DNA of 64,000 bases from Mytilus edulis (taxonomy: Eukaryota): positions 49,352,001-49,416,000 of the forward strand of contig NC_092349.1 of NCBI RefSeq assembly GCF_963676685.1, written 5' to 3'. This document shows, piece by piece, positions 5,222 to 18,901 of the stretch. The position numbers and the translations under genes were made by a program. The notes under the pieces are model-generated. The model saw only the letters and a program-made list of their open reading frames with translations, was not told the DNA's origin and made no database searches. Position 1 is the stretch's first letter. Every line of letters begins with the position of its first letter.

Positions 5222-8200
5222 TCATCCACAAGTTGTACTGTTGAAACAAGGCTGATCTGAAAAACACAAAAACAAAAAACATTACCCAAACTGAACTGCA
5301 TATTTTGTATAATATATGACTGTATAAATGTAACAATTTCAACTATTTTCCTGACTCATTTTTCTTAAATTACGGTTTCGGGACATATGAAAGCATGACA
5401 TTGCATTTCATTATTTATCAGATGCAATAATATAATGCTTTAAATAAATGCTTGCTTGCCTGGCATTACGACTCTAAATCTTTTGCCATTCAACTGCCAA
5501 GCTTTAACATCATGCTTTGGCATGAACTTTTGCATTCACATCCGGTCTTTGTCTAGTTATCACATGATCCGTTATGGAATGGATTCTGTTTCTTTGAACT
5601 TATGATACACATTTTTATCAAATCATTCACACAGAACTGGTTTTGAACATGTAGATAGCAATGCTTTTAAACTATCGTTGAGAAAGATATTCCCAATGAT
5701 TTAAGTCTTATATTATAGCTACAATTATATAAAATGCTTAAATAAACGTACTCTGGATAAGGGTTCTACAATCACCCTTCGTGTTACAATTTTTTCCAGT
5801 ACAACATGCTGAACATAAAACAAGAGATCCAAGATCTGCTCGTTTTCCATGGTGAGTTGCCTTGTATTCTCTCAACATTACGTCACAAACCTACAAAAAC
5901 ACAAATAAACAATTACATTAGATGGTCTCAGTGTGTTTTAAATGGTTATAAATTAAATGTTTACAAAAAAATTGAATTTTTTAAAATACTAAGGCTATTC
6001 TACCTCAGGAATAGATTACCTTAGCTGTATTTAGAAAACTTTTTTTGGGGTCATCAATGCTCCTCAACATCGTGCTTTATTTGGCCTTTTTAACTTTGTT
6101 GGATTCGAGCGTCACTTATGAGTCTTTTGTAGACAAATAAACTCATCAAAGATACCAGGACTAAATTTATTATATACGCCTGACGTCATCCAAGACTCAT
6201 CAGTGACGCTCAAAACGCGCGTCTGGCGTATATACCAAATTTAATCCTATTATCTATCTATGATAAGTTTATTTAACATGCGCAAACAAGCAAAAAGTAT
6301 AACCTCTAAATATAAATACTATATCGGCTGACAATCTAAATTGAATCATACTGAAATCTCGCTGACATAAATAAAAGTAGTACAACTCGATTATTTGAAT
6401 ACTTCAAATTTTACAATAATAATAGTTTGTCTAATCGCTTTGATATGTATGTATTGCAACTTATTTATAGGTTTTTCAAATATTCTTAATCACATTCAGT
6501 ATTTTCATTGTTAGTTACAAACATAGATTGAGCTTGAACTAACATAGCTTATATGAGAAATTGAACATCTTGTGAAGGCATGAATAACTTGTTAAACATC
6601 AAATATGACGAACAGTTCTGAATTTTGCCAAGTGCTTGGCCTTTGTGGGGTAGGAAAGATTTATTTTATTGCATCTTTCCTGGTGGCTTAGTTGACCCCT
6701 TCCTAGGCCAAGCTATTGTATTCTGTATTATTTTATTATCGTTTTATGTTTTGCATTCATTATTATCAGAGACATATAATACATTATATGTCTCTGTTAT
6801 TATCTTGTTGGAAAACGTATATGTATATATTATATATTGTTTATTTTTGTATGAGAAACATTTTTACTCTGAATAAGTAAAAATATTGCAATTCAACTTC
6901 CAGTTTCTCTTTTCATTTATGCATTGACCAAATGGTCCAATAAATGTTAAATACATGAGATACTCGCCGATTCATTCAAGTGAAAGGTAAACCTCTCGTT
7001 GTTTGTTTGGGTTGAAGGAGGAAAGCATAAATAAAAGTAGTACAACTCGATTATTTGAATACTTCAAATTTTACAATAATAATAGTTTGTCTAATCGCTT
7101 TGATATGTATGTAATATTTAACTAATTATAATTAACTAAAACAAAAAAAAGAACATGCGTTATGTTTACAGTTTATGACCATTTTAACATGTTTTGTATA
7201 GTTATACAGTGTAGGTAGTTAGGTAAGAAATAAACACAGCAGCTGCGTGTAAATCCCGTATCATACCACCGTATTGTACTAATGCACCTTAGTGTAATAC
7301 AGTTTATTTAGAGTAACCATATGCCGGATGAACAAAAAGTGTGTCATTTATTGAAAAACATATGGCTTGGTATACAAGAAAACTTCTCTAGTGTTCAAAA
7401 ACATTTTTCACAAAATCCCCCCGCTTCAAGCTCTGGATCCGTGCCTGTGTATTGGGTGCAAATCGTAAAGTTTTTGTGCCCATCTTTTGGAGAATGGTGC
7501 TAAAATGTTTTGGGTCTCTTGTAGAGGCGTTTGATAGAATGAAGTTGTATGTAGTATAGTGCTGACTATTTAGCTAGAGGGATGGGGGATGGGTGTATTG
7601 TCTTAACAAATGTTTTTTAAATGCGCAACATTTCTTATGCTATTTGATATCATATCCTCACGTAACGTTATTTGTTTTAAGTAGATATAATTACATGTGG
7701 TATGAATGACAACGAGACAACACTCCATCCAAACGTAAACCGTTATAGGTTAAATAAGGGATATCAACACTGAGCCGTGGATCACACCGAACATCACGCT
7801 ACATGTATGAAGGGCCCAAATAATGAATAGTGTAAAACTATTCAAACAGGAATACCACCGGTCTAATTTATATACAAAAACGAGAAACAAGCATGAACAA
7901 CATAAAAAAAAACACTGAACATCAGGTTCATGCCTTAAGACAGGTGCAAACAATTACAGCGGGTTTAAACATTTGAATGTACTAATCTTCACCTCATCTG
8001 AAACTACAGTGTAACATCACAACATAGAAAGACCCACTATAAAATATCAATTGAAATTACTTAATTTAATCAAAAGTCATATTAACACAAGTGAACATAC
8101 ATTAAACGAATAAAGTTTATCTATGATGCAGTGTAAATACAAAATCAATAAAATAAGGGATGAATAAAAAAAGGCAATAGCAGTATACCACTGTGAGATA

Positions 8201-17200: not shown

Positions 17201-18901
17201 TTTTTTTTTGTCTGCTTTGGTTATAAGGAAAATACAGTACAGTTAAATATTTTGATGCTTAAATACCAGCTAGTGAAACAAAAATGGCTTCATTGTTGTC
17301 AACTAAGACTTAAATTCGAAATCAACTTCCAATAGATATAAGAAAAATTATTGTATCCCTAGCCTGTTATAAATTTTATTTCAGATATTTGAAATGAACT
17401 CTGAATTCAAATGTTTACCTCTAGTCCATCCCGACATTCTACTTGATGTGTCAAACACCTGGATCTGTCAGATTCGCTGTGACATGATAAACATGTTAGA
17501 CCTGTAATATAAATTGAATTATATTTTCACATTGTGACATCATTCTGGTATACAATAATTTCACGTAGAAATGACGTATTTTTTTTTAATTTTAGCATTA
17601 TATTTGCCATTTGAAAATTTAAGCCGATTACAAATGTCATCTATTTTTTTTTTTTTTTAATTCAATCATAAAGGTGTTTTTACTGTATTATTTCTTGTTG
17701 TATATCTAAATTTCGTTATTATTTATCCTCCTCCTCCTCCTCCTCCTCCTCTTCCTCTATAGAATTAATACTTTATCGACAGTTCCCAGATTCAACAGCT
17801 AGGGTATAGATTTCTCAAAGAGGTTCTTTATTTCTATATTCTCCAGCTTCTCAGGCCATTATCTCAATTCTTGTTTGTATTTCAGCACCCCGTGTTTTAT
17901 ATTCTTCATTTATTTTGGCAAATTTTTCTCTGCTCTTTTATCCCCTTTTATTCTGCTCTGTGTGTCCATAATTTTTTATTCTGTAAAACCCCATTCAGAC
18001 CCTCATGATAAAAAGTAAAAGTATTCAATTTACCGATTTCCATTAGTGTAGGAATATTATACGAAAATGAATTGAAGCATATATTATCATACCCAATGAA
18101 CTCTTCCATATGATTGACGTTACAGTAACAAAAAGAACTGAAATGATGAATAAAAAGCTGTGATAATGCGTTCACATTATTTTCCATGTCTTATACTATG
18201 TTACACAAAATAATACTTAGTAATAGATTAGAGAACAATTGAAGGTCTTTCCACTACTTAAAAGTTTTTATTGATGAATATATTTAAATGCAGTTGAAAA
18301 TGTCATTTCCAGTGTCAAATGACAGTTCATTGTAAGCTAATTCAAAAAATGTATGTTTTTTTGTTACCCCCGGTCTGAAAAATGTAACTTCCGGTATTCA
18401 TTGATAGTTTATTTGACACAGTTTTCAAAAATATGTTGTTCTAAACTTTTACATAAAATAAGTACAAATATACTCACTTCCGGTTAACACAAGGTCACTT
18501 CCGGTTTGCCTTTTTTCAAAGTCATCTGGCTTGTAACCTAATGCACAAAGTCCTATATGCCTTTATGATGTATAAATATAGGTCAAAATCTAGAACGTCA
18601 AATTAACATATGACCTTGACCTTATTTTGAAGGTTATAAACAAAGGACTTCAAATCAAAAGACCCGAGGTCTTTTATATGTATGGTTATTTTAAAAGTTG
18701 CAAATGTTTATCACTATACGATCCTTTACCATAGTTCTAAATGTCAGAGGCCTGAGGCAAAAACTCCCAATTTCTATCTACGCATCCTTTCAACCAAAAT
18801 TTATGAGTTACGACATATTGCAAATGACAATATATTAAAAACGGTCAATATCTTTATACAGTATACGATCTATCATACTTACATATATATGATAGTACCA
18901 T
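5222..18901 (-). CDS. Secreted Cys-rich protein with three Ly6/uPAR (three-finger)-like domains, 12 coding exons, 331 aa
   Basis: Exons 18901-18883, 18137-18093, 17501-17419, 16552-16481, 15984-15846, 14697-14618, 14187-14116, 11702-11552, 9843-9752, 8343-8275, 5890-5752, 5256-5222. All introns are GT-AG with matching phases, 996 nt total. Signal peptide MVLSYIFLFVTVTSIIWKSSLG, then three repeats of CxxC..C..C / xC..GC / VCD..G[KR]R..CxxCC..CN..C. AATAAA lies just downstream (~5191-5203). Confidence 0.88.
5985..6272 (+). mobile_element. Hammerhead repeat family A copy, disrupted by an internal inverted copy
   Basis: The core GAGCGTCACTTATGAGTCTTTTGTAGAC is interrupted at ~6135 by an inverted segment (to ~6211), then resumes AAAACGCGCGTCTGGCGT. 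Confidence 0.75.
6366..7113. repeat. Perfect 88-bp direct repeat (6366-6453 and 7026-7113)
   Basis: CATAAATAAAAGTAG...GATATGTATGTA is identical at a 660-bp offset. Confidence 0.9.
7690..8210 (+). repeat. Dispersed repeat family B (GATGTGGTATGAGTGCCAATGAGACAAC...)
   Basis: Homologous to 22918-23480. Shorter copies at 12205-12260, 25970-26050 and 15683-15765 (reverse). Confidence 0.75.
10300..10850. mobile_element. Non-autonomous element: long hairpin plus IR-bounded module (Crypton-like architecture)
   Basis: Imperfect hairpin at ~10310-10432, then a module bounded by TTTATTATATGACT...AGTCATATAATAAA. Confidence 0.45.
12252..12440. repeat. Minisatellite, 36-bp unit x~5
   Basis: Unit TTGTAAAAGGAAACCATTACAGGTCAAATTACAGAT, amplified from an internal segment of repeat family B. 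Confidence 0.9.
14855..14898 (+). ncRNA. Minimal type I hammerhead ribozyme, second family, probably inactivated
   Basis: GCATCA-CTGAAGA-GACA-TTGAT-TGTC-GAAA-TGCACA-GC-TGGTGC. Core and stems I/II are present, but the UH cleavage dinucleotide is GC. Confidence 0.65.
17727..17757. repeat. (CCT)n microsatellite
   Basis: TCCTCCTCC... run. Confidence 0.85.

Follow-up and report, generated by a model that had tools for sequence, protein, structure and literature searches.

Candidate convertase and amidation sites within finger III of a secreted triple three-finger protein from the mussel Mytilus edulis

We analysed a stretch of 64,000 nucleotides of the Mytilus edulis genome (contig NC_092349.1, positions 49,352,001 to 49,416,000; called the window here, with positions counted from its first letter). 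Its minus strand carries, between 18901 and 5222, a real, spliced gene for a secreted protein with three domains of the three-finger (Ly6/uPAR, or LU) type, XP_071179605.1. We propose that this protein is probably a proprotein: in each domain, finger III would be cut at a G-K/R-R motif, the ends generated would be amidated and the pieces would remain joined by disulfides. The proposal is drawn from the sequence of the protein and from the statistics of the motif among its relatives, where it forms a strong family-wide signal of predicted convertase cleavage and amidation.

A spliced gene of three-exon cassettes

A splice-site scan and assembly by coordinates gave 12 coding exons of 996 bases in all (Table 1). 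The 11 introns are all GT-AG and the reading frame is open to the stop codon. The 331-residue product is identical to P0001 of our protein set, which is RefSeq XP_071179605.1 (Mytilus edulis, 'uncharacterized protein'); the gene was therefore already annotated, without name or function. Three exons encode each of the three domains, with intron phases 1-0-0-1, and in every domain introns fall one codon before Cys5 and one codon before Cys7. The 12-exon chain and repeated cassette put forward in the original prediction, made from the sequence without database searches, are confirmed.

Exon joints were looked for in contigs from four runs of four studies, which we guess to be RNA; no run found to contain the sequence is recorded as RNA. 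Joints 9-10 (8343/9752) and 10-11 (5890/8275) were present in contigs of all four runs and joint 11-12 (5256/5752) in those of two. Joint 8-9 (9843/11552) was exact in three runs, the fourth differing by two letters, and the loose end of the contig past exon 8 was exon 7 sequence in three of the four. Contig support for the proposed chain thus extends from this run-on into exon 7 down to exon 12; for introns 1-6 the basis is the splice signals together with the RefSeq model. Contigs and window show a few differences in exon 8, none of them within the GKR or RQKK codons, and the contigs carry a 3-base insertion directly ahead of the Gly. In raw reads from two runs of a related organism, depth was almost zero over exon-only bins and repeats swamped the signal.

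In exon 1, a splice acceptor located about 10 bases ahead of the start codon suggests a further untranslated 5′ exon, and AATAAA-type signals lie past exon 12, at 5203 and 5196. The introns hold several high-copy repeats. Short tandem arrays occur in intron 7 (12260-12440) and upstream of the gene (19750-19900), where the repeat units measure about 30 and about 21 bases. RefSeq isoform X1 has one more exon, by which 20 polar residues are inserted into the signal peptide; this exon lies in a region that draws repeat reads and may be an exonised repeat.

A secreted protein with the three-finger fold in domains 2 and 3

Residues 1-22 resemble a signal peptide by hydropathy only (N-terminal 15-residue Kyte-Doolittle window 2.33), and the C-terminus of the protein has no hydrophobic stretch (last 15-residue window -0.19). 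Each domain contains 12 Cys and a short tail contains two more. This agrees with the expected signal peptide followed by three 12-Cys repeats without a glycosylphosphatidylinositol (GPI) or transmembrane tail, to which we add that the last residue is Gly. The basic sites are GRR 83-85, RSRR 90-93, GKR 179-181, RQKK 189-192 and GKR 289-291. They were found where they had been predicted, at like positions in the three domains with RSRR and RQKK as second sites, and they lie between Cys7 and Cys8, that is in finger III of each domain. The inter-domain linkers of the protein hold no dibasic site. With Cys and finger III left out of the comparison, identity is 40% between domains 1 and 2 and 22% between domain 3 and either of them.

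The LU domain is defined in the available text of a review by ten consensus Cys within 60-90 residues (PMC6600238). Here Cys1-Cys10 spans 88, 90 and 81 residues, with two further Cys per domain, and an Asn directly follows the tenth Cys (C112-N, C212-N, C309-N). The match to Pfam PF00021 (UPAR_LY6) is 16.9 bits (E 0.009), under the curated cut-off of 24.8 bits, so the protein is not filed as a member; with single exons as Pfam queries, none of nine gave a match. Sequence search of the PDB found solely MYLIP, a chance Cys match, and PSCA (E 0.004-0.011). The top ESM Atlas score was 0.83, to molluscan LU clusters, and was treated as a lead only.

An AlphaFold2 model built from 71 sequences had a mean predicted local distance difference test score (pLDDT) of 83 and a predicted template modelling score of 0.45. 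Its top Foldseek match was uPAR (E 5e-4). With VIA-align, the first 39 rows all bore titles of three-finger proteins, the top ones being GPIHBP1 (Z 7.7, root-mean-square deviation 2.6 over 76 aligned residues), Lypd6b (7.5), CD59 and PSCA (both 7.2), and the first different fold appeared at Z 3.2; these Z values are middling, none reaching 8, and the matches cover domains 2 and 3 only. According to the model, domains 2 and 3 are of the three-finger (Ly6/uPAR) fold, and the fold originally predicted is upheld for these two. The basic sites come after a short helix, in low-confidence loops, and in domains 1 and 2 the Gly stands two residues past the helix end.

Candidate convertase and amidation signals across the family

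A profile search of 1.84 billion representatives returned 302 matches at E 0.001 or better, and the best 150 of them were analysed. The 12-Cys pattern delimited 220 domains in 129 of these 150 proteins; it left out the other 21 proteins as well as some irregular domains. KR or RR was present in the Cys7-Cys8 loop of 169 of the 220 domains, against a mean of 52.9 and a maximum of 68 in 1000 within-loop shuffles, and against 20 of 220 for the finger II loop. For G[KR]R the count was 116 of 220, against 5.7 in the shuffles and two in finger II. The loop itself varies in length from 7 to 53 residues and the position of the site floats within it.

The context of the sites is also that of processing signals. 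Basic runs ended in Arg in 203/220 cases in finger III and in 44/97 elsewhere in the domain. An aliphatic, aromatic or Pro residue came right after the run in 14/220 and 47/97 cases, respectively. Arg-ended runs and the avoidance of such following residues are known preferences of proprotein convertases. The dibasic order was KR in 146 cases and RK in 35. Gly preceded the first site in 137 of 169 cases and later sites in only 6 of 37 (Fisher p=1e-13); amidation of the retained chain alone would lead one to expect this. The residue before that Gly, the would-be amide carrier, was V, I, F, L or M in 96 of 140 cases. Two sites per domain were found in 35/220; the spacers between paired sites had a median of 5 residues and were 19% Asp/Glu. 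A terminal Gly was found in 28 of the 150 proteins, against a 6% background (p=3e-7), and in 20 of the 66 short-tailed ones. The G[KR]R site anticipated in homologues is therefore widely kept across bivalves and abalones.

The signal was retained in the controls. When the loop was masked, 68 of 129 proteins still reached the score required for listing. Of the 110 domains in these proteins, 89 had the site; without eight close relatives, it was present in 75 of 96. Domains of less than 20% non-Cys identity had it in 22 of 30 cases. Gly was kept at 45 of 48 sites with helix-unfavourable upstream residues. In the finger-III exons of the Mytilus edulis genome, found with motif-carrying queries, KR/RR was present in 39 of 39 and the preceding Gly in 35 of 39. 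To judge from the literature covered, this motif is apparently undescribed in LU domains.

Family members and their partner domains

The family comprises at least 302 clusters at 50% identity. Among 20 relatives whose organism was looked up, 18 came from mussels, oysters, scallops, a pearl oyster, clams and abalones, and two had no organism given. A profile search of a word-indexed database gave 19 proteins, 18 from Mytilus and one from Potamilus. In the Mytilus edulis genome, paralogue clusters lie beside the window on C6 and also on C8 and C9. The interval directly downstream of the window (G000:C6:49111898-49341121) contains at least three near-identical three-domain paralogues and, further on and on the other strand, a one-domain paralogue fused to ShK and mucin domains. 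The paralogues of this interval are a recent tandem expansion.

Among 71 relatives scanned against Pfam, 26 matched PF00021 at E 0.01 or better and 11 matched Toxin_TOLIP. Partner domains were Ig (5), ShK (4), mucin WxxW (2) and C-type lectin (1); by sequence, these partners point more to recognition proteins than to a hormone or a toxin. Only 5 of the 150 relatives have a hydrophobic C-terminal stretch. P0005, P0006 and P0010, close Mytilus paralogues, combine one or two of these domains with ShK repeats, a Thr/Pro linker and mucin WxxW, and two of them have at the end an acidic tail after an RR. P0017, P0016 and P0014 are database models that join family exons with an AIG1 GTPase or with integrase-like or recombinase-like pieces, and are probably gene-model errors. 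Genome matches to the convertase P domain (38) and to copper monooxygenase (33) were too broad to pinpoint PC2, furin or PAM.

A proposed processing model

We propose that a proprotein convertase of the secretory pathway would cut finger III after the basic pair in each domain, that a carboxypeptidase would trim the basic residues and that PAM would amidate the new C-terminal ends. Cuts after R85 (and R93), R181 and R291 would give four chains, approximately 23-82, 94-178, 182- or 193-288 and 292-330. Amides would be formed on Val82, Val178 and His288 and, via the terminal Gly, on Cys330. With the disulfide pairing 1-5, 2-3, 4-6, 7-8, 9-10, which is assumed from the LU consensus in the available text of PMC6600238, the Cys7-Cys8 bond would hold the pieces together. 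Seven Cys precede each cut; with 1-5, 2-3 and 4-6 paired, one is left to tether the next chain, so the whole would be one molecule.

In this respect the model departs from the original prediction, which had each domain mature into a separate two-chain module. Since the linkers lack dibasic sites, the predicted product is a single four-chain disulfide-linked protein. The suggested insulin-like excision of a connecting peptide would fit well in domain 1 alone, where GRR is followed by RSRR. In domain 2 the second site ends in Lys, and domain 3 has one site; Lys-ended RQKK is not a canonical convertase site. With two sites in only 35 of 220 domains, a nick would be the rule in the family and the spacer optional.

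The cut would free the end of the finger-III helix, now an amidated and usually hydrophobic residue, and the nick would serve in maturation by shaping or opening a binding face. According to the available text of PMC6600238, the 7-8 disulfide stabilises loop 3, and flexibility there matters for ligand binding by uPAR; by this analogy, the binding face could be opened or shaped when loop 3 is nicked. The most likely role, a weakly supported suggestion, is that among the mussel's secreted recognition or mucosal proteins this one might serve as a soluble module that binds and acts on a receptor at a cell surface or on a partner protein. With less than even confidence, the model might extend to a large 'pro-three-finger' family of bivalves and abalones with finger III as an activation loop in the manner of prohormones. 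In it, convertase and PAM would make a disulfide-tethered amidated helix on a three-finger scaffold, which domain shuffling would have combined with lectin, Ig, ShK and mucin domains.

Several points weigh against the proprotein proposal. The cleavage and amidation of XP_071179605.1 are predictions from sequence, and the disulfide pairing is an assumption. The site is absent from 51 of the 220 domains, some of which have single-Arg loops, and so is not required for the fold. Sites at most 5 residues from Cys7 are preceded by Gly in just 13 of 29 cases. All relatives were retrieved by motif-carrying queries, loop masking cuts scores by a median of 21.5 bits so that the control retains about half of the proteins, and related sequences are non-independent events in all these counts. 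In domain 1, residues 83-105 have a pLDDT below 50 and are barely covered by the VIA matches. The recognition role is taken from partner domains of other relatives, which XP_071179605.1 itself does not have.

Alternative explanations

The same processing could make a hormone- or pheromone-like ligand of neuroendocrine or reproductive glands, the amidated helix end being the message and the three-finger body its carrier; the mechanism would be as proposed above, and the tissue and target would differ. The motif has the signature of neuropeptide precursors, with Gly only before the first site, a hydrophobic amidated residue and short acidic spacers. There are precedents in the available text of two papers: the precursors of cuttlefish gland pheromones are rich in Cys, undergo dibasic processing and are in part amidated (PMC3484142), and salamander SPF and PMF are pheromones (PMC8904931). 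However, the amidated ends share no sequence past one hydrophobic residue, and the cuttlefish peptides tabulated in PMC3484142, as far as that table goes, do not match this Cys pattern. The expansion of the family and its fusions to lectin, Ig, ShK and mucin domains are also unlike what is seen in hormones, and we consider this explanation unlikely. A defensive toxin of the three-finger type has close to negligible probability in our estimate. The protein is secreted, has the fold and belongs to a tandemly expanded family with Toxin_TOLIP matches, but in structure it matches LU proteins that are not toxins best, toxins ranking lower, and it has three domains per chain. To our knowledge, mussels are without a venom apparatus.

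The main alternative to cleavage itself is that the motif stays uncut, with Gly capping the finger-III helix and the basic pair forming a surface patch for acidic glycans, membranes or a receptor, as do the basic finger tips of other three-finger proteins. The modelled position of Gly in domains 1 and 2 suits such a cap, the 51 domains lacking the site also speak for this alternative, and cleavage of finger III is itself a prediction. The statistics fit it poorly: Gly is kept where the upstream residues disfavour a helix, and a charge patch leaves unexplained the excess of KR over RK, the Arg end, the avoided following residues, the floating position and the terminal Gly. We therefore give it little credence. 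Very improbable, finally, is that the loop is cut extracellularly by trypsin-like proteases of host or microbes, or as an inactivation, the amidation signal being incidental. An exposed, variable loop and the single-Arg loops among domains lacking a dibasic site would be in line with this, but Gly selected before the first site only and the terminal Gly both point to PAM, which acts inside the secretory pathway.

Relation to known systems

With the LU superfamily (GPIHBP1, Lypd6b, CD59, PSCA; multi-domain uPAR, CD177, C4.4A), the mussel protein shares the fold of domains 2-3 (VIA Z 7.2-7.7, root-mean-square deviation 2.6-3.1 over 71-84 residues), a 10-Cys spacing that includes CC and CN, flanking introns in phase 1, which are typical of LU domains though not obligatory, and tandem gene clusters, and its three domains match the number in uPAR. 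It differs by two extra Cys per domain, by the lack of a GPI anchor and by the convertase/amidation motif of finger III. Vertebrate-type Ly6 genes have two exons per domain with an intron at the tip of loop 2, whereas the mussel gene has three and hence is not filed there. Snake three-finger toxins are single short LU domains, in contrast to the three domains and 331 residues here.

The string 'cleav' is absent from the main text of the LU review, the part available (PMC6600238). A 2026 in-silico survey of invertebrates, in its available text, counts about 83 LU genes per mollusc genome, with LU alone or combined with C1q, fibrinogen, Ig and MAM (PMC13719153). Its molluscan proteins have in common with ours the phylum, secreted multi-LU chains and LU fusions. 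The main text of that survey, the part available, contains none of the terms cleav, dibasic, amidat, furin and convertase and does not single out the 12-Cys family. No paper dealing with dibasic or amidation sites within LU domains, or with six family locus identifiers, turned up in a literature coverage that mostly excludes subscription journals.

In available text, mussel myticalins carry a predicted, not validated, G-KR signal (PMC12294457), dibasic cutting has been shown for the cuttlefish (Sepia SP-alpha/beta) pheromone precursors (PMC3484142), and a ribbon-worm paper merely names three-finger-like transcripts (PMC9132205). The Sepia pheromones and the two-finger conotoxins (PMC12236594, available text) were set aside as other families. 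Insulin-type and neuropeptide prohormones, myticalins and Sepia SP-alpha/beta share with the mussel protein a signal peptide, G-K/R-R, Arg-ended runs, short acidic spacers and possibly disulfide-linked chains. In contrast to prohormones, the mussel sites lie inside a folded three-finger domain, are mostly single, giving a nick and not an excision, and would yield pieces of 40-107 residues and not short peptides; no sequence relationship was seen. XP_071179605.1 may work like an insulin-type two-chain hormone without being a member. Amphibian SPF is likewise secreted, multi-domain and three-finger, and one relative in the family bears the automatic name 'Sodefrin-like factor'. Sodefrin, however, is released from the end of its precursor and not from within finger III.

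Other features of the window

The region 47000-64000 holds a Polinton/Maverick-like element with GC content up to 52% (Table 1). By its motifs, we take its 1454-residue frame to be polymerase-like (family B), and two further frames, 60513-61250 and 60992-62257, are tentatively likened to a cysteine protease and a capsid protein. Upstream of the three-finger gene, minus-strand frames at 34724-35167, 35689-36285 and 39133-41019 include a Death domain (E 6.5e-17) and a 628-residue frame with a ubiquitin-like domain (E 2.5e-9); they are perhaps exons of one immune-signalling gene.

Table 1. Coordinates of the three-finger gene and of other annotated features in the window
Feature	Position	Strand	Content and basis
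Exon 1 (coding part)	18883-18901	-	Start codon and first signal-peptide residues
Extra 60-base exon, RefSeq isoform X1 (P0018)	18478-18537	-	Inserted into signal peptide; database model
Exon 2	18093-18137	-	Exon assembly; hydropathy; present in P0001
Exon 3	17419-17501	-	Domain 1, Cys1-4; splice scan and assembly
Exon 4	16481-16552	-	Domain 1, Cys5-6 (finger II); splice scan and assembly
Exon 5	15846-15984	-	Domain 1, Cys7-12 and finger III; GRR 15957-15949, RSRR 15936-15925
Exon 6	14618-14697	-	Domain 2, Cys1-4; splice scan and assembly
Exon 7	14116-14187	-	Domain 2, Cys5-6; contig loose end in 3/4 runs
Exon 8	11552-11702	-	Domain 2, Cys7-12; GKR 11678-11670, RQKK 11648-11637
Exon 9	9752-9843	-	Linker and domain 3, Cys1-4; contig joints
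Exon 10	8275-8343	-	Domain 3, Cys5-6; contig joints
Exon 11	5752-5890	-	Domain 3, Cys7-12; GKR 5848-5840; contig joints
Exon 12 (coding part)	5222-5256	-	Tail with two Cys, terminal Gly 5227-5225, stop
PC4	48081-48638		Within Polinton/Maverick-like element
C2H2 zinc finger	49933-50403		Within Polinton/Maverick-like element
1454-residue frame	52717-57081		Within Polinton/Maverick-like element; no Pfam match
A32-like ATPase	59641-60324		E 1e-4

Significance

Three-finger proteins are familiar as rigid binding modules that remain intact. If finger III were cut and amidated by the enzymes that mature hormones, the fold would gain a regulated maturation step. The processing model supplies exact masses and amidated ends that can be sought in existing shellfish proteomes, and versions produced recombinantly in bacteria may be inactive precursors. 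If true, it would also mark out the clusters counted above as a large group of secreted mollusc proteins that lack annotation, and 'pro-three-finger' proteins would be a class of ligands merging Ly6/uPAR proteins with amidated peptide signalling.

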